Positions 6,424 to 64,000 of a stretch of 64,000 nt of DNA are shown piece after piece. The notes under the pieces are model-generated. The model was not told where the DNA came from. It did no database searches and worked only from the letters and a program-made list of their open reading frames with translations. Source of the stretch: Minisyncoccota bacterium (GTDB lineage: Bacteria > Patescibacteriota > Minisyncoccia > Phycocordibacterales > UBA9973). The stretch's first letter is position 1, and each line of letters opens with the position of its first letter. The stretch covers positions 14,002 to 78,001 of the forward strand of contig JBAZOQ010000001.1 in assembly GCA_041648595.1 (NCBI GenBank). The letters run 5' to 3'. The translations under genes and the position numbers were made by a program.

Positions 6424-6858
6424 ATGAATGTTAAGCAAAATGTAAGAAAAATCTTATTAATTGATAGTAATGAAATATTACGTATCTATTTCCGTGATAT
6501 ATTTTGGATACACGGTAATAATAATCTCTATGAAGTTGAGGTTGTTTCTTCTTTCGAAGAAGCAGAAAAAAAATTAGAATATAAGGATTCTAAACCTGAT
6601 ATTATTTTTTTGGATGTAGTAATGTCAATTAAAGGAGCTAAAAATAGTATTGAAAATGAAATAAATCGATCTGTATCTTTTATTAAAAAAATAAAGAATG
6701 ATAAAACTTTATCAGATATAAAGATAATTATTTATTCTGACCAGAAAGAAAAAGCAATAAAGGATAAAGTTGCTGAATTAGGCATTGAAGGTTATTTGAT
6801 AAAAGGAGAATTAATGCCAAAAGAGATAATAAAATTTGTTGATAAAATTTATGAGTGA
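6424..6858 (+). CDS. Stand-alone CheY-like receiver domain protein. The phospho-acceptor Asp context FLDVVM and the conserved Lys (YLIKG) are present. The N-terminal acidic pocket is degenerate (LLIDSNE instead of DD). There is an insertion after the D loop.
   Basis: REC-domain motif pattern in the translation. Stop TGA at 6856-6858 overlaps the next ORF. Confidence 0.55.
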   Translation: MNVKQNVRKILLIDSNEILRIYFRDIFWIHGNNNLYEVEVVSSFEEAEKKLEYKDSKPDIIFLDVVMSIKGAKNSIENEINRSVSFIKKIKNDKTLSDIKIIIYSDQKEKAIKDKVAELGIEGYLIKGELMPKEIIKFVDKIYE

Positions 6859-9422: not shown

Positions 9423-9469
9423 TTTTTATAATATATTTTATATATTTGTGTTATATTAAAACGATGGAT

Positions 9470-9589
9470 CCCGTTAGAGATTAAATAGTTATTTTTTCGG
9501 GATTTATTTAAGTTAGCTCTTGTAACTAATTTTATTATTAAATATTAATTTAAGGTACGGAAATCTAAAGATTTCCTATCTCTAACGGG
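9470..9589 (+). mobile_element. MITE-like TIR element, family 1 copy a (120 bp). TIRs are CCCGTTAGAGATT / ATCTCTAACGGG. It is flanked by direct repeat ATGGAT (9464-9469 and 9590-9595), and the 3' copy is the lepA start codon.
   Basis: Inverted termini and flanking 6-bp direct repeat were read directly. The interior is AT-rich and non-coding (MDPVRD followed by a stop if read from the 5' ATG). Confidence 0.6.
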
Positions 9590-11509
9590 ATGGATTTAAA
9601 ACACATACGAAACTTTTCTATCATCGCACATATTGATCATGGTAAAAGTACTTTGGCGGATAGAATGTTAGAAATTACACATACTATTCCTGAGCGTAAA
9701 ATGCGTGATCAAGTACTTGATTCTATGGATCTTGAACGTGAACGTGGAATTACTATTAAAATGCAACCAGTTAGGATGGTCTATCGACCAAAATTTCCAA
9801 TTTCCAATTTCCAATTTCCAATCAATGATCCAATTTCTAATGAAAATTCTAAATTAAAAATTGAAAATTCAAATTCAGAATACATTCTGAATTTGATTGA
9901 CACCCCAGGGCATATAGACTTTTCTTATGAAGTTTCTCGAGCATTAAAAGCAGTAGAGGGCTCTATTTTATTAGTTGATGCGACACAGGGAGTACAAGCT
10001 CAAACTCTTACTACACTTAATATGGCACGTGAGGGAGCCAAAGAAGGGGGCAAACAAATTATTCCAGTACTTTCAAAGATTGATTCACCACTTGCTCGAG
10101 TAGAAGAAGTAAAAAGGGAGGTTATAGAACTCTTAGGTTGTAATTCTGACGAAATATTGATGGTTTCTGGACGTACGGGTGAAGGAGTAGAAAATCTTTT
10201 AAATGAAATAATAAAACGTATTCCACCACCAGTTGAAAGTTATCCACAAGGTGATAATATTTTACGTGCTCTTGTTTTTGATTTTAAATATTCTAATCAC
10301 AAAGGGGTTATAGTTTTTATTAGATTATTAGATGGAAAAGTAAAAAAGGGTGATAATTTACTTTTTTCAGTTTCAGGTGAAAAATTTTGTGCTCTGGAAG
10401 TTGGTACTTTTTCTCCAGAAGAAACACCAAGAGATTTTCTTTTTGCAGGAGATACGGGTTATATTGTTACAGGCATAAAAAGACCAGGTATTGCTTCTGT
10501 TGGAGATACTATTACAAAAGAAAAAAATCCATTACCTGCATTACCTGGATATATGCAACCAATGCCTGTTGTTTGGGCATCTGTTTTTCCAGAAGATGCT
10601 GATGATTTTTTAGAACTGAAATTATCTTTAGGAAAATTAAAATTATCTGATTCATCTTTTTCATACGAAGAAGAATCAAGTGGTTCACTAGGGCGAGGAT
10701 TTAGATGTGGTTTTCTTGGAATGCTGCATTTAGAGATTATCACAGAAAGATTAAGACGAGAATTTAATTTAGAGCTTGTTATAACTACTCCATCTATTAC
10801 TTATGAAGTATTATTGAGAAACCCTTCGACAGGCTCAGGGCAAGCTGGAAAAAGAGTAAAAATTTATTTTCCTTACTTTTTTCCTGAAGATGGAAATATA
10901 GATACAGTATTTGAACCTTGGGTAAAATTGAAAATAATTACTCCAATCAAATATATAGGCAATATTATGCAAATTCTTTTTGACCATGAAGCTGAAATTG
11001 GTGAGACAGATAATTTTGGCAATAATCGTTCTTCTGTATCTGTTAAAATGCCACTTCGTGAACTTATGCGTAATTTTTTCGATGAATTGAAAAGTGTTTC
11101 ATCTGGATATGGATCTATTTCTTATGAAATAGATGAAATGCGTAAAGCAAATGTTACTAGACTTGATGTGTTAGTCGCTGAAGAAGTGGTTCCTGCATTT
11201 TGTAGAGTTGTTTCAAAAAAAAGGGCAGAAGAAGAAGCAGAAAAAATAGTTGAAAAATTACATGATATTTTACCAAGACAAATGTTTGTTACTAAAATTC
11301 AGGGTAAAGTGTTAGGACGCATAGTATCATCTCGTACATTGCAGGCATTTAGTAAAGATGTGACTCAACATATGTATGGTGGAGACGTTACTCGTAAAAA
11401 TAAACTTCGAGATAAACAAAAGAAAGGAAAAAAGAAAATGAAAGAACGTGGAAAAGTGAATATTCCACATAGTGTATTTTTGAAAATGATGCGTGGAGGA
11501 AATGATTAA
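9590..11509 (+). CDS. lepA: Translation elongation factor 4 (LepA). It carries an in-frame (AATTTCC)n low-complexity insertion and an in-frame GC-rich REP-like insertion.
   Basis: N-terminus MDLKHIRNFSIIAHIDHGKSTLADR, NLIDTPGHIDF, and the LepA-specific C-terminal domain. Length 639 aa. Confidence 0.9.
   Translation: MDLKHIRNFSIIAHIDHGKSTLADRMLEITHTIPERKMRDQVLDSMDLERERGITIKMQPVRMVYRPKFPISNFQFPINDPISNENSKLKIENSNSEYILNLIDTPGHIDFSYEVSRALKAVEGSILLVDATQGVQAQTLTTLNMAREGAKEGGKQIIPVLSKIDSPLARVEEVKREVIELLGCNSDEILMVSGRTGEGVENLLNEIIKRIPPPVESYPQGDNILRALVFDFKYSNHKGVIVFIRLLDGKVKKGDNLLFSVSGEKFCALEVGTFSPEETPRDFLFAGDTGYIVTGIKRPGIASVGDTITKEKNPLPALPGYMQPMPVVWASVFPEDADDFLELKLSLGKLKLSDSSFSYEEESSGSLGRGFRCGFLGMLHLEIITERLRREFNLELVITTPSITYEVLLRNPSTGSGQAGKRVKIYFPYFFPEDGNIDTVFEPWVKLKIITPIKYIGNIMQILFDHEAEIGETDNFGNNRSSVSVKMPLRELMRNFFDELKSVSSGYGSISYEIDEMRKANVTRLDVLVAEEVVPAFCRVVSKKRAEEEAEKIVEKLHDILPRQMFVTKIQGKVLGRIVSSRTLQAFSKDVTQHMYGGDVTRKNKLRDKQKKGKKKMKERGKVNIPHSVFLKMMRGGND
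9792..9819 (+). repeat. Perfect heptanucleotide tandem repeat (AATTTCC)x4 inside the lepA coding sequence, followed by degenerate AAATTC-like repeats to about 9890. It is translated as PISNFQFPINDPISNENSKLKIENSNSE.
   Basis: Seen directly. The segment lies between the G1 and G3 (DTPGH) motifs, where canonical LepA has no such segment. Confidence 0.8.
10821..10848 (+). repeat. GC-rich REP-like element (family B: CCTTCGACAGGCTCAGGGCAAGC) inserted in frame in lepA. It is translated as NPSTGSGQAGK.
   Basis: A roughly 25-nt island of about 65% GC in an about 30% GC gene. The same motif occurs in eno (x2) and valS (x2). Confidence 0.7.
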
Positions 11510-12126: not shown

Positions 12127-12154
12127 TATGTAATGTTATAATTATCTATATGAA

Positions 12155-12221
12155 TCCCGTTAGAAATTCACTTAACGGGAGTCGAAAATATATTAAAAAT
12201 TAATTTTAAATTTCTAACGGG
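12155..12221 (+). mobile_element. MITE-like TIR element, family 1 copy b (67 bp). TIRs are TCCCGTTAGAAATT / AATTTCTAACGGG. It is flanked by direct repeat ATGAA (12150-12154 and 12222-12226), and the 3' copy is the start codon of the dehydrogenase gene.
   Basis: Read directly. Confidence 0.6.
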
Positions 12222-13175
12222 ATGAAAATAGCATTTTTTAGTGTTTTAAAAGAATATCAAGAATTTTTTAATAATTCATTTTCAAAAGATGAAGTTTTTT
12301 GTTTTGAAGAAAAATTAACTAAAGAAAAATTGAACCAAATAAAAGATTTTGAAGTTGTTTCTGTTTTCGTAGATTCGATAGTAGATAAAGATATTATTGA
12401 TAATTTATCTAATTTAAAATTTATTACTACTCGTTCGACTGGATTTGATCATGTTGATTATCAATATGCAAAAAGTAAGGGAATAGCATTTTCTAATGTT
12501 CCAGTGTATGGCTCTAGTACTGTAGCTGAATTTACTTTTGCTTTGATATTAAATCTTTCTAGAAAAATTAGTGAAGCTCTAAGACAATTGAAAGAAGGAG
12601 GTATTTTTGAAGCATTAAAAAACATACAAGGTTTTGATTTAGATGGTAAAATTATTGGAGTCATTGGTACTGGTAAAATAGGTAAGAATGTAATACGTAT
12701 TGCTAAAGCTTTTAATATGAAAGTTTTAGCTTATGATTTATATCCAGATTTAAATTTTGCGAAAGAAAATAATTTTGAATATAAAGATTTTAATGAAGTG
12801 ATATCTGTATCTGATATTATTACGTTGCATACTCCTTCTACAAAAGAAAATTATCATCTTATAAATAAAGAAAGTATTTCAAAAATGAAAAAAGGTGTTT
12901 ATATCATAAACACTGCCCGTGGTGAACTTATAAATACAGAAGACCTGATATTGGGAGTAAAAGAAGGTATTGTGGGTGGTGTAGGATTAGACGTATTGGA
13001 AGGTGAGCGTGATTTTAAAAAAGGAGACAAGATTGCTTTTTTTGAAATACCTAATGTTATAGTCACACCACATATAGCTTTTTATTCGAAAGAAGCGGTA
13101 GATAGAATAGCTGAAACCACGGTTGATAATATAAAAGGTTTTATGTCTGGTAATTTACAGAATTTAGTAAAATAA
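12222..13175 (+). CDS. D-isomer-specific 2-hydroxyacid dehydrogenase family protein (hydroxypyruvate/glycerate or D-lactate dehydrogenase-like).
   Basis: NAD-binding GVIGTGKIGKNVIRIAKAFNMKVLAYD. Catalytic region ARGELINTEDL..GVGLDV...HIAFYSKEA. Confidence 0.8.
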   Translation: MKIAFFSVLKEYQEFFNNSFSKDEVFCFEEKLTKEKLNQIKDFEVVSVFVDSIVDKDIIDNLSNLKFITTRSTGFDHVDYQYAKSKGIAFSNVPVYGSSTVAEFTFALILNLSRKISEALRQLKEGGIFEALKNIQGFDLDGKIIGVIGTGKIGKNVIRIAKAFNMKVLAYDLYPDLNFAKENNFEYKDFNEVISVSDIITLHTPSTKENYHLINKESISKMKKGVYIINTARGELINTEDLILGVKEGIVGGVGLDVLEGERDFKKGDKIAFFEIPNVIVTPHIAFYSKEAVDRIAETTVDNIKGFMSGNLQNLVK

Positions 13176-18304: not shown

Positions 18305-18318
18305 TATAAATGTACTTG

Positions 18319-18383
18319 TCCTGTTAGAAATTCAACAGGTATGTTATAATGATAAAAATTATTAATTTAAAATTTCTAATAGG
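18319..18383 (+). mobile_element. MITE-like TIR element, family 1 copy c (subfamily c/e). 5' ACTTGTCCTGTTAGAAATTCAACAGG, 3' AAATTTCTAATAGG abutting ATG 18384. Internal TTATAAT box. A 5' ATG at 18310 opens a 5-codon uORF (MYLSC).
   Basis: Read directly. The 3' TIR is degenerate relative to copies a, b, d and f. Confidence 0.5.
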
Positions 18384-18581
18384 ATGCTTATAATATCTCA
18401 AACAATATTTTATATAGTAGCTTCAGTCGCAATGATCGTTGTTCTTGTGATGTTTGTTATTGTGATATATTATTTTATAGGTATTTTAAAAAATACCCGT
18501 AGTATTTCTGATGATATTGTAAATACTTATACAAAAACTAAAAAAAATATAAAGAAGATTATTAATTCAATAAAAATATGA
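18384..18581 (+). CDS. Small hydrophobic membrane protein (65 aa), hypothetical.
   Basis: ORF directly after a family-1 element. Its TGA stop lies inside the ATGAG repeat of the next element. Confidence 0.4.
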   Translation: MLIISQTIFYIVASVAMIVVLVMFVIVIYYFIGILKNTRSISDDIVNTYTKTKKNIKKIINSIKI

Positions 18582-18582
18582 G

Positions 18583-18688
18583 TCCCGTTAGAAATTTACA
18601 AAACGGGGATAAAATTATAAAAATAACATAAATCAACTATCTTTATATATAAATAATATATGTACGAATGGTATGATTTCTAAACGGG
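18583..18688 (+). mobile_element. MITE-like TIR element, family 1 copy d (106 bp). 5' TCCCGTTAGAAATTTAC with local hairpin CCCGTT..AACGGG, 3' GATTTCTAAACGGG. Flanked by ATGAG (18578-18582, containing the upstream TGA stop) and ATGAA (18689, the downstream start).
   Basis: Read directly. TGgTATGAT (extended -10-like) lies 11 nt before the ATG. Confidence 0.6.
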
Positions 18689-19021
18689 ATGAAAAAACAA
18701 ATAAAAAAAGAAGAAAAAAGTAGTAAGTTTTTGAGTGGAGCATTGATAGGTGCAGCACTTGGTGTAGCAGCAGGACTTTTTGCAACATCAAAAAAAGGAA
18801 AAGAAATTACAAAAGAAGTAAAAAATAAATCAGTAGAATTTTATAAATATATTGCTCCACAAATAAAGAAAGCAAAAGAGATGGGGGAGCAAGAATATAA
18901 AGCTTTTATAAATAAAGCATTAGTTAGTTATAATAAAAATAAGAAATTCAGTAAAGAAGACTTAGAAAATCTAAAAAAAGAAGTCCACGCATCTTGGAAA
19001 CATCTAAAAAAGAATTTTTAG
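18689..19021 (+). CDS. YtxH-like small membrane-anchored protein (DUF948-like).
   Basis: N-terminal LSGALIGAALGVAAGLFATSKKGKE followed by a charged helical tail. Confidence 0.5.
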   Translation: MKKQIKKEEKSSKFLSGALIGAALGVAAGLFATSKKGKEITKEVKNKSVEFYKYIAPQIKKAKEMGEQEYKAFINKALVSYNKNKKFSKEDLENLKKEVHASWKHLKKNF

Positions 19022-19036
19022 AAATCTAGCTTAGAC

Positions 19037-19059
19037 TTGCGGAAGCAAGACTTCCGCAA
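19037..19059 (+). repeat. REP-1 palindrome TTGCGGAAGCAAGACTTCCGCAA, immediately upstream of tRNA-Gly.
   Basis: Same palindrome family as the three copies around and inside the RAYT gene at 36.3-37.1 kb. Confidence 0.75.
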
Positions 19060-26067: not shown

Positions 26068-26176
26068 AAAAAAGACAAAACATCTTTTAAAAAGCATTGC
26101 GCAGGCTGACGAGCCGAGCATAGCAAATTTTCAGCAGAAAATTATGTGCGGTTTTTAAAAGATGTTTTGTCTTTTT
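26068..26176. mobile_element. Hairpin / MITE-like element. Perfect 24-25-bp inverted repeat AAAAGACAAAACATCTTTTAAAAAG ... CTTTTTAAAAGATGTTTTGTCTTTT flanking a 58-nt core containing the GC-rich motif CGCAGGCTGACGAGCCGAG. Located in the valS-tsaD intergenic region.
   Basis: Read directly. The core motif recurs inside tsaD at 26683-26702 and in degenerate form upstream of tRNA-Ser (about 28990-29015). Confidence 0.65.
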
Positions 26177-26179
26177 TTG

Positions 26180-29699: not shown

Positions 29700-30632
29700 T
29701 TATTTAGTATGTAAATATAGATAAATATCCTCAATAGCTTTTACAGCATCGCCGGCGGCTATGTTATTTTGATGATATAAGATATTTGTACAATCTCCCG
29801 CAGCCCAAATGCCAGATGTTTCTGTTTTTTGATTTGATTGATTTATTTTTATACGATTTCCTTCATCTAATGGAATTATGTCTTTAACAAAATTAGTATT
29901 TGGAATTTGTCCGATTTCTACAAAAATACCTGAAACTTTTAGTTCTGTCTCTGTATTATTTATTTTGTTCTTATAAATTATTCCTTCTACAAATTTTTCA
30001 CCTTTTATTTCTAAAATTTCTACATTTTTAATTGCTTTTACATTTTCTTTCTTTAATACTTTTTCAACTGTTATTTCGTCAGCACGAAAATTTTCACTTC
30101 TGTGTAATATTGTAACTGTTTTGCAATATGCAGAAAGTTGAGCAGCAGATTCAAAAGCTGCATTTCCTCCACCAACCACTACGACATCTTGATCTGCAAA
30201 AAGGGGACCATCACAAGTAGCACAATAGGTGAGTCCTTTATGCTCTAATTTATTTGCATTTTTTGCTTCTAATTTTCTGCGTCCGCTACCTGTGGCTATT
30301 AGAATAGTTTTAGTTAAAAATTCTTCTTCAGATTCTGTTTTAATTAAAAAGTTAGTATCAGATTTTGTTATTGTATTTACTTTCTCTCCATCTTTCACTT
30401 CTAATGTTTGTCCGACTCCAGCATTAGCGAGTACGTGTTTTTTAAAATTTAGAGCTAGATCAGAGCCAGAGATAGAAGGAGAACCAATCCAATTATAAAT
30501 CTGTAGAGACACGATAGATTGCCCACCCCATTCGGATGTTATAAATAAGGTATTAAGTCTTTTACGAGAAGCATATACAGCCGCTGCTGAGCCAGCTGGA
30601 CCACCCCCTACAATTATTAAATCATATACCAT
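29700..30632 (-). CDS. trxB: Thioredoxin-disulfide reductase.
   Basis: FAD motif IIVGGGPAGSAAAVY, redox-active CATCDG, NAD(P)-binding VVVGGGNAAFESAAQL. Confidence 0.85.
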   Translation of the reverse strand: MVYDLIIVGGGPAGSAAAVYASRKRLNTLFITSEWGGQSIVSLQIYNWIGSPSISGSDLALNFKKHVLANAGVGQTLEVKDGEKVNTITKSDTNFLIKTESEEEFLTKTILIATGSGRRKLEAKNANKLEHKGLTYCATCDGPLFADQDVVVVGGGNAAFESAAQLSAYCKTVTILHRSENFRADEITVEKVLKKENVKAIKNVEILEIKGEKFVEGIIYKNKINNTETELKVSGIFVEIGQIPNTNFVKDIIPLDEGNRIKINQSNQKTETSGIWAAGDCTNILYHQNNIAAGDAVKAIEDIYLYLHTK

Positions 30633-31885: not shown

Positions 31886-32040
31886 TAAAGGCTTTAGGCT
31901 TTAGGCTCTAGGCTTTAGCTTTTATACTAATACTCAGAATCTAACTACTAAGAGCAAAATTTAATTAATAAAGTTATATGTTCATATAATAGCAGAAAAT
32001 TATATTTTGGCTAGTAGCCTAAAGCCTAGTGCCTAAAGCC
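31886..32040. repeat. Inverted pair of CCTAAAG/CCTAGTG heptad-repeat blocks (GGCTTTAGGCTTTAGGCTCTAGGCTTTAGC ... TAGCCTAAAGCCTAGTGCCTAAAGCC) bracketing the ftsA-ftsZ intergenic region. A third block lies at 48911-48941 upstream of obg.
   Basis: Read directly. The two blocks are reverse complements of each other. Confidence 0.7.
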
Positions 32041-32045
32041 TGTGT

Positions 32046-33748: not shown

Positions 33749-33838
33749 ATTTGTAGATTATCATAGTTTTTTGAAAAATGCAAAATATGGGTATTAAAAA
33801 ATGTAAATTAGTTGCTTTCTTAGGCAAGTTCTTGTTTT

Positions 33839-33945
33839 GCAAAAAATGAGAGCTAGTGCTTTTTTATGGCTCGCACTCTAACCTGAATGTGGTAACTCTA
33901 TCTAATATTGCGTATGCCAAAAAAAGCACTAGCTCTCATTTTTTG
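33839..33945. mobile_element. Hairpin / MITE-like element. Perfect 27-bp inverted repeat GCAAAAAATGAGAGCTAGTGCTTTTTT ... AAAAAAGCACTAGCTCTCATTTTTTGC flanking a 52-nt core, in the divergent rpsU/greA promoter region (greA leader).
   Basis: Read directly. Confidence 0.6.
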
Positions 33946-33982
33946 CTAGACTTTTTTATAAAAAAAAGTTAAGATTCAAAAT

Positions 33983-36325: not shown

Positions 36326-36347
36326 TTGCGGAAGCAAGGCTTCCGCA
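36326..36347 (+). repeat. REP-1 palindrome TTGCGGAAGCAAGGCTTCCGCA, immediately upstream of the RAYT gene.
   Basis: Perfect 9-bp arms GCGGAAGC/GCTTCCGC around CAAGG. Confidence 0.75.
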
Positions 36348-36361
36348 GTACTATAGTTAGT

Positions 36362-37063
36362 ATGGCGTATAGAAAAGCATCTTTTGTAGAAGGAGAATTT
36401 TATCATATTTATAATAGAGGAAATAGTAAACAAAAAATATTTTTAGATAATCATGATTATGATCGTTTTATAAAATTATTATATCTTTGTAATTCAGAAT
36501 ATAGTATTGATTTTCGTGAAGATATAGTAAGACAGGGAATTAATGCTTGGGATTTTGATCGTGGTGAATCTATAGTTTCAATAGGTGCATGGGTATTAAT
36601 GCCAAATCATTTTCATTTATATTTAAATATAAATCCGCGGAAGCAAGGCTTCCGCAAAGTTCGTATTAATGAAATTACAGAATTTATGCACAAACTTTTG
36701 ACATCTTATTCGAAGTATTTTAATACAAAATATAAACGTACAGGAGGATTATTTGAAGGTAAATTTAAATCAGTTCATATAGAGGATGATAATCAAGCAA
36801 AATATCTTTTTTCTTATATTCATTTGAATCCAGTCAAACTTATAGATAGTAAATGGAAAGAAAATGGAATAAAAAATAAAAAACAAACAAAAGATTTTTT
36901 GAATAAATATATATGGTCAAGTTATTTAGATTATAAAGGAATTACTCGTTCCCCAAATAAAATTTTAAATAAAAAGGCATTTCCAGAATACTTTCGTAAT
37001 ATGAAAGATTTTGATTTTGAAATAGGGGAGTGGCTTAATTTTTCGGATTCTGACTTAAATTAA
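36362..37063 (+). CDS. IS200/IS605-family HUH Y1 transposase, REP-associated tyrosine transposase (RAYT)-like. It contains an in-frame REP-1 copy (PRKQGFRK).
   Basis: N-terminal FVEGEFYHIYNRGN, HUH motif MPNHFHLYL, catalytic Tyr region KYLFSYIHLNPVK. Flanked on both sides by REP-1 palindromes. ATG 36362 is preferred over the track's TTG start at 36326, which lies inside the REP. Confidence 0.75.
   Translation: MAYRKASFVEGEFYHIYNRGNSKQKIFLDNHDYDRFIKLLYLCNSEYSIDFREDIVRQGINAWDFDRGESIVSIGAWVLMPNHFHLYLNINPRKQGFRKVRINEITEFMHKLLTSYSKYFNTKYKRTGGLFEGKFKSVHIEDDNQAKYLFSYIHLNPVKLIDSKWKENGIKNKKQTKDFLNKYIWSSYLDYKGITRSPNKILNKKAFPEYFRNMKDFDFEIGEWLNFSDSDLN
36635..36657 (+). repeat. REP-1 palindrome CCGCGGAAGCAAGGCTTCCGCAA inserted in frame within the RAYT gene.
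   Basis: Translated as NPRKQGFRKV directly after the HUH motif. Confidence 0.7.
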
Positions 37064-37096: not shown

Positions 37097-37119
37097 TTGC
37101 GGAAGCCAGGCTTCCGCAA
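37097..37119 (+). repeat. REP-1 palindrome TTGCGGAAGCCAGGCTTCCGCAA, immediately downstream of the RAYT gene.
   Basis: Read directly. Confidence 0.75.
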
Positions 37120-48902: not shown

Positions 48903-48945
48903 ATTATATCTAGTGCCTAGTGCCTAAAGCCTAGTGCCTATTAAC

Positions 48946-52546: not shown

Positions 52547-52555
52547 AGAGACTTG

Positions 52556-52619
52556 TCCCGTTAGAAATTCAGCGGACATGTTATAATGATAATGTTATTA
52601 ATTTAAAATTTCTAATGAG
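52556..52619 (+). mobile_element. MITE-like TIR element, family 1 copy e (subfamily c/e). 5' (ACTTG)TCCCGTTAGAAATTCAGCGGACATG, internal TTATAAT, 3' AAATTTCTAATGAG abutting the fba ATG 52620.
   Basis: About 85% identical to copy c over its length. Confidence 0.5.
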
Positions 52620-53492
52620 ATGAAAACCTTACGTGAATATGTAAAAGAAGCGGAAGAGAAGAAGGTAGCAATAGGTCATTTTAATATTTCAAATTTAGAA
52701 GCCTTGCATGGTATTTATAATGCAGCTAAGAAGTTAAATGTGCCTATAATAATTGGTCTTTCAGAAGGGGAAGAAAATTTTATAGGTAAAGAAGAAGCAG
52801 TAGCTTTAATAAAGGCTATTCGTGAGAGGGATGATTTTCCTATTTTTTTAAATGCAGATCATCATTATAGTTTTGAAAAAGTTAAAGAAGCGTTAGATGC
52901 TGGTTATGATGCAGCTATTATTGATTTAGTAAAATTACCACTTGAAGAAAATATTTTACTTACAAAAAAATGTGTTGATTATGCTAAAGAACTTTCTCAA
53001 AAAGAAAATAGAGATATTTTAGTTGAAGCAGAGCTTGGTTTCATTGGAACTTCTTCAAAAATTTTAGAGGAAATTCCAGAAGGGGTAAGTGAAGCGACTA
53101 TGACAAAAGCAGAAGATGCAAAATATTTTGTAGAAAAAACTGGTATTGATTTGTTGGCACCTTCTGTAGGAAATGTTCATGGAATGGTAAAAGGAGGAAA
53201 CCCTAGACTTAATATAGAAAGAATAAAAAAAATCCGTGCTACTTGTGGTGTACCTCTAGTATTACATGGAGGTTCAGGAATTTCGGATGAAGATTTTACG
53301 AATGCTATAAAAGCAGGTATTTCTATAGTTCATATTAATACTGAGATTCGTGTTGCTTATAAAGAAGCAATAGAAAAATATTTGAAAGAGAATCCAAATG
53401 AAGTTGCACCATATAAAATATTACAACATGCAGTAGAGGCTGTAGAAAAAGTAGTAGAAGCGCGATTGAAGCTTTTTAATAATTTAAAATAG
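52620..53492 (+). CDS. fba: Class II fructose-bisphosphate aldolase.
   Basis: MKTLREYVKEAEEKKVAIGHFNISNLE, metal-binding His region NADHHYSFE, LHGGSGISDEDF. Confidence 0.8.
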   Translation: MKTLREYVKEAEEKKVAIGHFNISNLEALHGIYNAAKKLNVPIIIGLSEGEENFIGKEEAVALIKAIRERDDFPIFLNADHHYSFEKVKEALDAGYDAAIIDLVKLPLEENILLTKKCVDYAKELSQKENRDILVEAELGFIGTSSKILEEIPEGVSEATMTKAEDAKYFVEKTGIDLLAPSVGNVHGMVKGGNPRLNIERIKKIRATCGVPLVLHGGSGISDEDFTNAIKAGISIVHINTEIRVAYKEAIEKYLKENPNEVAPYKILQHAVEAVEKVVEARLKLFNNLK

Positions 53493-62878: not shown

Positions 62879-63289
62879 ATGGCAACTATTTCAAACAATG
62901 ATATAGCCCGTGCAATTTATCTAATTTTGAAAGATAAAACAAAAATAGAATTACATGATGTATTTGATAAAGTAATAAAATTTTTAGTACAGAAAAGATT
63001 ATTAACAAAGACTGCAGATATTTTAGAACGTTTAGATAAAATAATTAATAAAGAGGAAGGGAAAATTATTGTAAAGATATTAAGTGCTAAAAAACTAAAA
63101 GAAGAATTAAAAAAAGAATTAATAATTTTTCTGAAAGAACGTTATAAAGCTAAAGAGATTGTCTTTATAGAAGTGTTAGAAGAAAAATTGTTAGGTGGTA
63201 TGAGAATAGAGGTGAATGATGAAATTATCGATTTAACAGTAAAAAACAAAATTAAAAAATTACAAGAACATTTAACAAGAAGAATATGA
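62879..63289 (+). CDS. atpH: F0F1 ATP synthase subunit delta.
   Basis: Position between atpF and atpA. OSCP-like helical protein of 136 aa. Confidence 0.65.
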   Translation: MATISNNDIARAIYLILKDKTKIELHDVFDKVIKFLVQKRLLTKTADILERLDKIINKEEGKIIVKILSAKKLKEELKKELIIFLKERYKAKEIVFIEVLEEKLLGGMRIEVNDEIIDLTVKNKIKKLQEHLTRRI

Positions 63290-63290
63290 G

Positions 63291-63389
63291 TCCCGTTAGA
63301 AGTTAACTTTCGGGAATAAATTATAAAAATTAATTAAGTTTATCTAATATATTAAAAAAGTTAAGTAAATTAGTATAACTTCTAACGGG
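63291..63389 (+). mobile_element. MITE-like TIR element, family 1 copy f (99 bp). TIRs are TCCCGTTAGAAGTTAAC / ATAACTTCTAACGGG. Flanked by direct repeat ATGAGT (63285-63290, containing the atpH TGA stop, and 63390-63395, the atpA start).
   Basis: Read directly. TAGTATAAC lies 10 nt before the ATG. Confidence 0.6.
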
Positions 63390-64000
63390 ATGAGTAACAA
63401 TATTGTAGAAAATTTAAAAAAAGAAATAGATAATTTTTCATCACAAATAAAAGCTGAAAAAGTTGGACATGTTTTAGAAGTTTTTGATGGTATAGCCAAA
63501 GTTTCTGGTCTTTCAGAGATAAAATCATCAGAGATGGTTACTTTTAGCAATGGAGAAATTGGTGTAGCACTTAACCTAGAAGAGGATACTGTTGGTATTA
63601 TCATTCTTGATGATTTTTCTAAGATAAGAGAAGGGGATGAAGTCAAAGCTACTGGAAAAATTTTAGAAGTACCAGTTTCGGATAATATTATTGGACGAGT
63701 TGTAAATGCCTTAGGTGTAGAAATTGATGGCAAAGGTGTTATTAGAACAGATAAAACTTATCCAATAGAAAAAGTTGCACCGGGTGTTATTACTCGTCTT
63801 TCTGTCTCTCAACCTGTTTCCACTGGTATTAAAGTTATCGATGCTATCATTCCTATCGGTCGTGGTCAACGTGAGCTTATTATTGGTGATCGCCAGACTG
63901 GTAAAACTGCAATTGCTATTGATGCTATTTTAAATCAAAAAGGTCAAAATATGATTTGTGTTTATGTTTCTATTGGTCAAAAAGATTCTAAACTTCGCAA
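63390..64000 (+). CDS. atpA: F0F1 ATP synthase subunit alpha (3' partial, runs off the window).
   Basis: [41 protein letters not shown] ... Walker [14 protein letters not shown]. Not in the ORF track because there is no stop within the window. Confidence 0.85.

Follow-up and report, generated by a model that had tools for sequence, protein, structure and literature searches.

SsnA is a GIY-YIG nuclease of 94 amino acids that binds hairpin repeats flanking its own gene and cuts single-stranded DNA a few nucleotides upstream (PMC11893778). The authors of the Ssn study pointed out that the arrangement of repeat, gene and repeat resembles an insertion sequence (Chenal et al., Nat Commun 2025, PMC11893778). 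The Ssn nuclease with its NTS/SRM hairpin repeats is the closest known system to the elements described here. The transposase classes known to us are the DDE, DEDD and HUH enzymes, the tyrosine and serine recombinases and Cas1; GIY-YIG enzymes lie outside them.

The window, i.e. the whole analysed stretch of 64,000 nucleotides from a Minisyncoccota bacterium, contains six copies of an element of 64-122 bp, all with the inverted ends TCCCGTTAGAA...TTCTAACGGGA. Their coordinates, counted with the invariant outer T and A, are as follows.

Copy a: 9469..9590, + strand, 122 bp, ends TCCCGTTAGAGAT...ATCTCTAACGGGA; position 9590 is the A of the lepA ATG.
Flanks of copy a: TGGA at 9465-9468 and TGGA at 9591-9594; the upstream duplicated start ATGGA lies at 9464-9468.
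Copy b: 12155..12222, + strand, 68 bp, with ends of 14 bp that match perfectly; it closes on the A of the 2-hydroxyacid dehydrogenase start codon.
Target-site duplication of copy b: TGAA at 12151-12154 and 12223-12226.
Copy c: 18319..18384, + strand, 66 bp, with both ends degenerate (TCCTGTTAGAAATT...AATTTCTAATAGGA); it closes on the A in the start codon of a 65-aa ORF.
Copy d: 18583..18689, + strand, 107 bp; it closes on the A of the ytxH start codon.
Copy e: 52556..52620, + strand, 65 bp, degenerate 3' end AATTTCTAATGAGA; it closes on the A of the fba start codon.
Copy f: 63291..63390, + strand, 100 bp, 16-bp ends; it closes on the A of the atpA start codon.
Target-site duplication of copy f: TGAG at 63287-63290 and 63391-63394; the upstream TGA is the atpH stop.

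All six copies that a preliminary description of this DNA had assigned to its Family 1 are thus confirmed, all on the + strand, and the pattern of paired ends has no match in 100 shuffles of the window. The abutment on start codons is complete (6/6), as had been claimed: the terminal A in each case opens the ATG of an ORF on the + strand, namely lepA, the 2-hydroxyacid dehydrogenase, the 65-aa ORF, YtxH, class II fructose-bisphosphate aldolase and atpA. A Shine-Dalgarno sequence, said to be missing, is found at none of the six copies, and the small upstream ORFs that had been listed are all there (MDPVRD-stop, MNPVRN..., MSPVRN... and MSPVRS-stop). The -10-like boxes of the preliminary description do exist in the elements. 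A promoter consensus scan yielded 59 sites against 47.9 expected, which is not above chance, so that the suggested role as a portable promoter gains no support.

The copies differ in detail. Copy b has a host TGTTATAAT box 7 nt ahead of the upstream copy of the ATG (12150), and forms a local 5' hairpin TCCCGTTA...TAACGGGA. Copies c and e carry an internal TGTTATAAT box and have degenerate 3' ends (AATAGG in copy c, AATGAG in copy e). Copy d has one additional A at its 3' end, TTCTAAACGGGA, and an interior related to L002_2075, while the ends of copy f show a compensated A>G/T>C change. A seventh copy is located at the mreB start, just outside the window, which brings the total to seven copies in 74 kb of the genome.

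The direct repeats around copies a, b, d and f are present as previously described, but their length, given as 4-6 bp, is best read as 4 bp outside the T...A borders. The repeats are TGGA/TGGA for copy a, TGAA/TGAA for copy b, TGAG/TGAA (3 of 4 positions) for copy d and TGAG/TGAG for copy f. Copies c and e have no 4-bp repeat; their left flank is ACTTG, which for copy c has TG alone in common with the right flank. In copies d and f, the upstream TGA serves as the stop codon of the preceding ORF, as had been claimed; at copy d, it is provided by ATGA at 18578-18581 and terminates the 65-aa ORF. The duplication is 4 bp of the form TGNN, sometimes 3 or 2 bp, and the ATG is restored by the element's own last A together with the duplicated TG. 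The host ORF stays intact, since the terminal A of the element (G in one variant) produces ATG (or GTG) at the downstream junction. The earlier statement that insertion keeps both reading frames is hence correct.

The same pattern is seen elsewhere. Paired ends were found in more than 118 genome stretches (GTDB genomes) from many lineages of the ultra-small CPR bacteria and from Omnitrophota, in a scan that demanded exact 11-nt ends including the terminal T and A; these two bases are conserved in the scanned set because the search design required both. The longest flank shared by the two sides of 118 copies is 4 bp in 76, 3 bp in 9 and 2 bp in 10; it is 1 bp or none in 20, so the length of the duplication is not constant. 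A perfect 4-bp repeat accompanies 84 of 129 copies in other genomes (65%). The consensus of the insertion sites is A|TGRR, and exact 4-bp repeats also occur at non-ATG sites (CTAA, TAAA, TTGA, CTTA). A left flank AC[TC]TG also recurs.

Syntenic close relatives (PEP synthase 87-94% identical, transglycosylase 76%) contain uninterrupted orthologous sites for all six copies, which answers the search for empty sites that had been proposed. The site of copy a is empty in L122 (ATGGATTTAAAACAC), and that of copy b in L120, L121 and L122 (..ATGAAAATAGCATTTTTT). In L120, the sites of copies c and d read ATGGATGCACTTATAATATC and TAA-aattt-ATG, both without the element. The site of copy e lacks it in L203 (..taagagaATGAAAACATTACG) and L204, and that of copy f is, in the same two relatives, an 8-nt atpH/atpA overlap without insert (..aaaaaatATGAGTAACAA). 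The converse polymorphism exists as well, since L121 is filled at a place where the window is empty. Nested insertions are present in L085 and L091, one of them with a CTAA duplication. The window copies are mobile, and insertion polymorphisms distinguish close relatives. Elements at different host genes are at most 92% identical in nucleotide sequence in pairwise comparison, so that very recent jumps are not documented.

The empty sites do not agree with the suggestion that the target was an ancestral ATGA stop/start overlap. The relatives instead show start codons in general (ATGRR), often those of leaderless-type genes: a promoter-proximal ATG at copies a and b, TAA, 5 nt and ATG at copy d, and the 8-nt overlap ATGAGTAA at copy f. 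The wider count that had been called for found an ATG adjoining 114 of 129 copies (88%), and an ORF of at least 50 codons follows 108 of these 114. The elements keep one orientation with respect to the gene, at 30:1 as judged by the internal hairpin partner. Taken with the empty sites, the filled site in L121 and the nesting, the 114 copies at ATG uphold the original reading as a MITE-like mobile insertion with target-site duplication at start codons.

The elements are closed by two covarying stems: P1, in which both ends are paired, and P2, formed between an internal segment and the 9-10 nt that adjoin the 3' end on its inner side. The inverted ends measure 13-16 bp in the six window copies, and positions 1-13 are paired in 112 further copies, with covariation at positions 12-13 (93-96% Watson-Crick pairing). 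P2 is found in 69 of 71 elements, compared to 1 of 71 in a shuffled control. The alifold consensus consists of P1 and P2, and the covarying pairs include GC33/AU21, CG38/UA11 and CG31/UA23. The asymmetry of mismatches between the strands (G-T versus A-C), as an indicator of pairing as RNA or as DNA, gave no decision for the ends and is only suggestive for P2. In a search of Rfam 15 at gathering and permissive thresholds, only tRNAs reached the gathering score, and the copies were unmatched even at E<=5.

The preliminary description overlooked that the window elements are deletion derivatives of a nuclease-encoding parent. This parent element, apparently undescribed, has a length of 273-286 bp and the bounds (T/C)CCCGTTAGA(G/A)...T(C/T)CTAACGGG(A/G), with end variants T..A, C..G, GAG or GAA, and CCCTGTTAAAT. 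Its interior is entirely taken up by one gene for a single-domain GIY-YIG nuclease of 84-87 aa (PF01541, E about 1e-16) with no further domain. The solved structures nearest to the nuclease are the UPF0213 proteins 1zg2 (E 4e-8) and 1ywl, and among the annotations given to its homologues are 92-aa proteins and "excinuclease ABC subunit C". Parent-type loci are L089 and L074, and L098 is a half-deleted intermediate. Among metagenomic homologues of the nuclease, gathered with a single-protein query, 71 of 77 are bracketed by the same ends. The 3' junction of the metagenomic elements is ATG in 47 and GTG in 9. The nuclease ORF is oriented like the host gene, and its stop is either a TAA within the 3' end, 4 nt ahead of the host ATG, or the TGA of ATGA; 30 metagenomic elements have this stop at -7, and 29 have it at +1. 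One full-length element sits in a pentose-phosphate operon. The differences by codon position (2252/1371/5794) indicate purifying selection on the nuclease.

Copy a retains the parental 5' leader, and P2 in the form of a collapsed hairpin (GGAAATC-TAAA-GATTTCC); it shares 24 nt of its 5' end and 20 nt of its 3' end with the full-length elements L173 and L159. No full-length copy was found in 74 kb of the window's own genome. Among the gene-less copies, 56 of 118 have an ORF that ends at the TAA of the end sequence. We considered a leader ORF as the explanation, but with so few cases a leftover of the nuclease C-terminus accounts for it better. For the 62 of 118 copies without such an ORF, translational coupling cannot account for their tolerance. 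The family thus combines inverted ends, a duplication, small non-coding dispersed copies, presence/absence polymorphism and a coding parent, as expected for MITEs. Very probably, the six loci are non-coding, MITE-like derivatives that arose by internal deletion from an ultra-compact mobile element encoding a nuclease.

How the element moves can only be suggested. The nuclease would mobilise the element that encodes it and also act in trans on the gene-less derivatives. Like SsnA, it may recognise the folded ends on single-stranded DNA; if it cut a few nucleotides beyond the stem, this would fix the offset at 4 nt, and the insertion would be completed by repair and ligation on the part of the host. 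A nuclease gene inserted at a start codon would lie downstream of a host promoter or of a site where ribosomes load, and the proximity of stop and start would pass ribosomes on to the host gene, so that the insertion would be nearly harmless. With slightly less than even confidence, we propose that the element represents a new class of prokaryotic DNA transposon, a start-codon parasite and the smallest autonomous one, with the 84-87-aa GIY-YIG nuclease as its only protein. Several points count against this reading, among them the variable length of the duplication, the recurrent left flank AC[TC]TG and the failure to find a full-length copy in the 74 kb from the window's own genome. GIY-YIG enzymes hydrolyse DNA, and we know of no strand transfer by them; moreover, inverted ends combined with a fixed 4-bp duplication are a hallmark of DDE transposases.

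The latter point would be accommodated if the elements were ordinary MITEs of a DDE-type IS (e.g. IS5, IS1380 or IS701-like), with an unseen transposase and the GIY-YIG gene as a mere passenger. Elements of these three groups produce 4-bp duplications, the inverted repeats and the mostly 4-bp duplication are typical of DDE elements in general, and GIY-YIG nucleases are, as is well established, not known as transposases. We nevertheless hold this explanation to be improbable. No longer element with the same ends was found in the 8-kb flanks of 118 loci or in 80 loci of ~5 kb, where the 8-kb search yielded nested or variant copies only, and a search for a DDE transposase gene between these ends drew a blank in the 8-kb or 5-kb flanks of ~200 loci and among the scanned window proteins. 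The sole coding form is the nuclease ORF that fills the element, with the stop within the end (71/77), and this ORF is under purifying selection. Finally, the ends covary as a stem, which a DDE enzyme that binds them separately would not need. For piggyBac and IS1380 in particular, which have CCC ends and a 4-bp duplication, no such transposase was seen. Another unlikely possibility, though one deserving somewhat more weight, is a spread of the homing type, in which the nuclease breaks ATGRR and microhomology-mediated repair copies the donor, the repeats being microhomologies (ATGNN). GIY-YIG enzymes are the classic homing endonucleases, the repeats vary from 2 to 5 bp and always begin at TG, and ATGRR flanks every donor. 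It is difficult to reconcile with this model that 76 of 118 repeats are exactly 4 bp and that exact 4-bp repeats occur at the non-ATG sites as well, and five bases of homology are very short for templated repair. A homing endonuclease gene with one long cognate site was rejected, as the insertions precede dozens of unrelated genes that share only ATGRR.

The fixed position and orientation at start codons, the stable stem (z -3.5 to -5.2) with covariation, the alternative 5' hairpin of the short copies and the internal -10-like boxes of copies c and e could also be taken as signs of an immobile host cis-regulatory RNA or translation-initiation module conserved in CPR, such as a leader hairpin, a thermosensor or a portable promoter. 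This is highly improbable in view of close relatives that have the same genes without the element, of the flanking duplications, nested copies and protein-coding parent, and of the missing Rfam match even at E<=5; the genes served also have nothing in common. It is scarcely credible that the copies are REPIN-like repeats spread by the RAYT-type Y1 transposase of the window (36362-37063). Such a gene is at hand, and REPINs are likewise long hairpins with compensatory changes, but the RAYT-like gene is bracketed by a different repeat, GCGGAAGC-NAG-GCTTCCGC, no Family-1 end is near it, and HUH Y1 transposition yields no target duplication. IS200/IS605 and REPIN were dismissed on the same basis: the ends are truly inverted, there are duplications, and the RAYT-like gene has its own REP. 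Integron attC sites do not fit by inspection, because the order of core sites is reversed and a 4-bp duplication is present. Translational bypass with matching take-off and landing codons is unnecessary, since the downstream ATG is a normal start.

If the nuclease does move the element, a new enzyme class would join the transposases and the lower size limit of autonomous mobile elements would shift. At 273-286 bp, the element would be the smallest autonomous mobile element known; to our knowledge, the mycobacteriophage MPMEs (about 440 bp) have been the smallest protein-coding mobile elements until now. It would borrow promoter and ribosome loading from the host and give back a rebuilt ATG and a stop/start junction that restores coupling. 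The elements further illustrate how selfish DNA can persist in extremely compact genomes, by inserting only where the interrupted signal, here the start codon, can be rebuilt. There are also practical consequences. The copies serve about one gene in ten within the window, so gene callers can mis-set starts, and assemblies may break at these repeats. The elements are a predicted source of tiny structure-guided nucleases, similar to Ssn, which has been proposed as a tool for ssDNA. Non-intron insertions bearing GIY-YIG have been reported in CPR rRNA genes (PMC11270868), and the elements may explain them.

In the literature searched, we met no account of these sequences, of MITEs in CPR bacteria, or of elements at start codons that combine GIY-YIG with inverted ends. 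The likeness to Ssn lies in a single-domain GIY-YIG protein of ~90 aa (84-87 aa here), in a gene between repeats that form hairpins and are also present in many copies lacking the gene, and in the cut of SsnA a few nucleotides outside the hairpin, which would fit the fixed offset. The SRM consensus HGTCWYN(0-2)YYVSBRHN(0-5)WNVSBRGN(0-2)RNCYNB, however, has no match in the window or in any of the 71 full-length elements with flanks. Whereas each side of an Ssn gene has its own local hairpin, the repeats here form the opposite ends of a single element and pair together. For Ssn, which is found mainly in Pseudomonadati and not, like the present elements, in CPR and Omnitrophota, there is no description of a target duplication, an insertion polymorphism, a position at start codons, a coupling of stop and start or a size of 273-286 bp.

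With the bacterial MITEs (Correia/NEMIS, ERIC, RUP, Nezha), the elements have in common that they are short, non-coding, hairpin-forming and present in many copies, with inverted ends and a target duplication, and that they are co-transcribed with neighbouring genes. Known MITEs are derived from DDE insertion sequences and insert at short AT-rich intergenic targets; we know of none that aims at or rebuilds start codons, or that has a GIY-YIG-encoding parent. In the REP/REPIN and RAYT systems and in IS200/IS605, a small nuclease likewise recognises hairpin DNA, the stems show compensatory changes and the repeats flank the enzyme gene, but these systems use an HUH Y1 enzyme, leave the target unduplicated and have extragenic repeats. 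Free-standing GIY-YIG homing genes (I-TevI, Seg) are comparable in that the nuclease is the only gene of a selfish element. They differ by a DNA-binding domain and one long cognate site, and by their spread through homologous repair without inverted ends or duplications.

Mycobacterial interspersed repetitive units (MIRU) resemble the elements in having small ORFs that overlap the stop and start of flanking genes, and Rickettsia palindromic elements (RPEs) in that insertion leaves reading frames unbroken. MIRU, RPEs and MPMEs all have other sequences, no GIY-YIG gene and no start-codon targeting. In algal introners, a DNA transposon end and the target duplication recreate the interrupted signal, so that the insertion is tolerated, much as in the present case. 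There, the rebuilt signal is a splice site and not a start codon, and the elements are eukaryotic, spliced out and dependent on other enzymes. In this respect, the elements are a bacterial counterpart of the intron-generating transposons of algae.

A motif search of the window found TCCCGTTAGAAATT paired with its reverse complement at six sites, all on the + strand, and the paired-end pattern gave 0 matches in 100 shuffles. With coordinates that include the invariant outer T and A, the six short gene-less copies are:

9469-9590, +, copy a; last base A is the A of the LepA ATG
12155-12222, +, copy b; last base A is the A of the 2-hydroxyacid dehydrogenase ATG
18319-18384, +, copy c; last base A is the A of the ATG of a 65-aa ORF
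18583-18689, +, copy d; last base A is the A of the YtxH-like protein ATG
52556-52620, +, copy e; last base A is the A of the class II aldolase ATG
63291-63390, +, copy f; last base A is the A of the AtpA ATG

The preliminary description had six copies with inverted ends terminating on start codons that lack a Shine-Dalgarno sequence, and this is borne out: none was found before the six host ATGs, and each terminal A rebuilds the first base of the ATG. The direct repeats that it reported at the flanks of copies a, b, d and f are present too, and are best taken as 4 bp. The 4 bases outside T...A (left/right) match in copies a (TGGA/TGGA), b (TGAA/TGAA) and f (TGAG/TGAG) and read TGAG/TGAA in d, whereas copies c and e have ACTTG on the left (18314-18318 and 52551-52555 of the window) instead of the expected duplicated ATGNN. 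Every copy folds as a long stem closed by its two ends, with z-scores of -3.5 to -5.2 except for the decayed copy e, and the end changes in copies a and f are compensated. The window belongs to a contig with 30% G+C from a Paceibacterota/Nomurabacteria genome, and a seventh copy lies at the mreB start, 8 kb past the window. Most window genes lack a Shine-Dalgarno sequence, and many have TATAAT 6-9 nt before the ATG, a leaderless-type start (for example at 6424, 29700-30632 on the minus strand, 44009 and 51011), which suggests that leaderless mRNAs are widespread in this Paceibacterota genome.

By sequence comparison, copies a to f are insertions. Syntenic contigs were reached via PEP synthase homologues (L120-L122; 94, 89 and 87% identical) and via a transglycosylase homologue (L203 and L204; 76% identity), and in these relatives all six window sites are uninterrupted, so that the suspected mobility is upheld by six empty sites out of six. 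At site b, the relatives read ..tacaatatagatATGAAAATAGCATTTTTT and the window ..ttataattatctatATGAA[T...A]TGAAAATAGCATTTTTT; at site a, ATGGATTTAAAACAC compares with ATGGA[T...A]TGGATTTAAAACAC, and at site f, ATGAGTAACAA with ATGAG[T...A]TGAGTAACAA. At fba (copy e), a relative has gagaATGAAAAC and the window gagaCTTG[element]TGAAAAC. The polymorphism is reciprocal, since L121 carries a copy at a nucleotidyltransferase gene start that is unoccupied in the window. In L085, a CTAA duplication marks the insertion of one copy within the 3' end of another, and L091 also contains a nested insertion. An ancestral ATGA stop/start overlap, previously taken as the target, is not what the relatives show: before insertion, the ATG was promoter-proximal at a and b, site d read TAA-5 nt-ATG, and site f had an 8-nt overlap.

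A scan with TCCCGTTAGAA-N(41-100)-TTCTAACGGGA, one genome per species, found paired ends in at least 118 stretches. Among the matches listed, the hosts are Nomura-, Kaiser-, Kerfeld-, Yanofsky-, Levyi-, Jorgensen-, Doudna- and Taylorbacteria, Kazan, and bins labelled Saccharibacteria, Omnitrophota and WOR-3, with about 30 to 59% G+C. The association with start codons and flanking repeats extends to these genomes: among the matches listed, an ATG adjoins 114 of 129 copies, followed in 108 of the 114 by an ORF of at least 50 codons (median 244), and 84 of 129 copies have a perfect 4-bp flanking repeat (TGAA 54, TGGA 21, TGAG 17, others). In the same listed matches, an A precedes the upstream repeat in 96 of 114 cases, the reconstructed target is A|TGRR, and the longest shared flank is 4 bp in 76 of 118, 3 bp (ATGN|) in 9 and 2 bp in 10. 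A -10-like hexamer lies 4-9 nt before the upstream ATG copy in 45/93 listed cases versus 20/93 shuffled flanks, and the copies keep one orientation with respect to the gene (30:1 among the matches listed). Because the first 11 bases, T and A among them, were set by the search pattern, the fact that they do not vary in the scanned set is not evidence. Positions 12 (AT55/GC48/CG4/TA1) and 13 (TA63/CG29/AT8/GC4) of the listed ends, outside the fixed bases, are variable yet still paired.

The left flank AC[TC]TG is also found directly at the element in unrelated genomes (L017, L026, L047, L055, L056, L065, L113, L117, L124, L137 and L147), often with a -10-like box 6-9 nt upstream of it. A GC-rich short subfamily is not at ATG: its duplication is TTGA, with C or T as the next base (TTGAC, resembling a -35 box), and it may represent a second target preference (L005 2402-2472; L024 971-1038; L036 2074-2151; L040 1795-1864; L098 1986-2059).

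The coding parent of the gene-less copies came to light through variant copies in L089, L098 and L074 that include an ORF. An 84-aa ORF begins 5 nt after the end CCCCGTTAGAGAT in L089, and its TAA stop falls within the other end; L098 represents a half-deleted intermediate, joined to a host ATG. The protein consists of a GIY-YIG catalytic domain alone (PF01541, E about 1e-16), with UPF0213 proteins as nearest solved relatives. A metagenome scan with this nuclease found at least 471 related stretches, and a sensitive protein search 732 clusters at E<=1e-10. From the best 80 of the at least 471 loci, 77 homologues lie away from contig edges, and the end pair brackets 71 of these. In this best-80 set, the full-length element measures 273-286 bp (modes 278 and 280), the ORF 84 or 87 aa, and the downstream junction is ATG in 47 and GTG in 9, the latter being a variant with C...G ends. 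Stop and start are close: again among the best 80, the nuclease stop, as the TAA of the end, starts 7 nt ahead of the host ATG in 30 cases, and in 29 it starts 1 nt after the A of the host ATG, as an ATGA overlap. L207 has an element within a pentose-phosphate operon, TAG-ATGAAA|element|TGAAAATAGCA. Differences at codon positions 1/2/3 number 2252/1371/5794 (21 distinct 84-aa ORFs), and the nuclease is therefore under purifying selection. In copy a, 24 nt of the 5' end and 20 nt of the 3' end are still shared with full-length elements, and many long gene-less copies have short ORFs ending ..ASYF* or ..ATCF*, which are best read as remnants of the nuclease C-terminus; other gene-less copies have no ORF at all.

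Public databases annotate the nuclease solely as "GIY-YIG nuclease family protein" or "putative endonuclease", or in error as "excinuclease ABC subunit C". Some database entries (P0255, P0261, P0266 and others) give 92 aa instead of 84 aa; these lengths and the excinuclease names appear to be wrongly called starts and misannotations, brought about by the element's place at host start codons. Sister families have different but self-consistent ends, each around a GIY-YIG ORF: CCCCG...CGGGG (host start becomes GTG), CCCTGTTAAAT...ATTTAACAGGG, and CCCCGTAGTAG... (L089 3884-4168, L164, L176, L190 and L197; L074 1240-1520; L128 481-756).

In 69 of 71 full-length elements, the 9 nt that adjoin the 3' end on its inner side can base-pair with nt about 90-99, compared with 1 of 71 in the shuffled control; the latter arm consists of codons of the nuclease ..LRKR(L/F).. 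motif. The alifold consensus of 55 distinct elements has exactly two stems, each 96-100% paired:

nt 1-13 with 272-284, P1, the stem of the two element ends
nt 94-103 with 261-270, P2, the internal stem

Both carry double substitutions (GC33/AU21, CG38/UA11/AU3, CG31/UA23). In full-length elements L123-L202, P2 has several double compensatory substitutions although each of its arms lies in coding sequence. Folding as single-stranded DNA also predicts the terminal stem and P2. Long gene-less copies retain both stems, juxtaposed by deletion, and in copy a P2 is a local hairpin.

We infer that the nuclease mobilises the element, because it is the sole gene, fills the element, and has a counterpart in SsnA, the nuclease of a published hairpin-repeat module, which binds and cuts at its own flanking repeats. 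Cutting at a fixed offset from the stem would leave a 4-nt stagger, and host repair would finish the insertion. The position 23 nt behind the host start signal would supply transcription and ribosome traffic for the nuclease gene, and the stop beside the host ATG would hand ribosomes on to the host gene. For the integration step, which the nuclease as a hydrolytic enzyme would have to achieve, a live alternative is homing by microhomology-mediated repair. Inverted ends and duplication would also suit a DDE-type MITE whose transposase is unseen, but no such transposase partner was found in the 8-kb or 5-kb flanks of about 200 loci or among the window proteins scanned, and the stem covariation and the ORF are left unaccounted for. 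A host regulatory RNA is ruled out by the empty sites, duplications, nesting and coding parent; Rfam gave no match.

The RAYT-like gene of the window was considered as the source of copies a to f and rejected, as it belongs to a different repeat:

36362-37063, RAYT-like Y1 (IS200-like) transposase gene (NCBIfam REP_Tyr_transpos E 2.3e-12, below cutoff; motifs HFHL, YIHLNPV)
36328-36346 and 37099-37117, REP-like hairpins GCGGAAGC-NAG-GCTTCCGC, bracketing this gene
36637-36655, third REP-like copy, in frame within the gene, encoding PRKQGFRK
19039-19057, fourth REP-like copy, before tRNA-Gly

Gene and hairpins make up a REP/RAYT system of their own in this CPR genome. AGGCTTT/AGGCTCT heptamer arrays lie inverted around about 100 bp upstream of ftsZ (31889-31918 / 32016-32041), with a related run (ctagtgcctagtgcctaaagccta) just before the obg start (48910-48933). 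Two minus-strand genes are separated by a perfect inverted repeat of 26 nt whose arms lie 58 nt apart (26068-26177), and a 32-nt repeat, 94% complementary, has a 54-nt spacer (33834-33951); the window genome may thus contain further palindromic elements.

We found no literature report, the Ssn paper (PMC11893778) included, of end-to-end pairing, target duplication or demonstrated insertion polymorphism, nor of start-codon targeting with ATG regeneration, stop/start coupling, the ~280 bp size or the CPR/Omnitrophota range. GIY-YIG ORFs were described in non-intron insertions of CPR rRNA genes (PMC11270868), which may be the same element. The start-codon element has a substantial chance of being a new class of transposon. 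Among known systems, the nearest to it is the Ssn nuclease/SRM repeat module, in which SsnA binds hairpin repeats flanking its own gene and cuts ssDNA a few nt outside the hairpin (PMC11893778). Its defining SRM motif is absent from the start-codon elements, but both systems have a tiny GIY-YIG gene between hairpin repeats and many gene-less repeats, and SsnA is the one characterised relative of this architecture.
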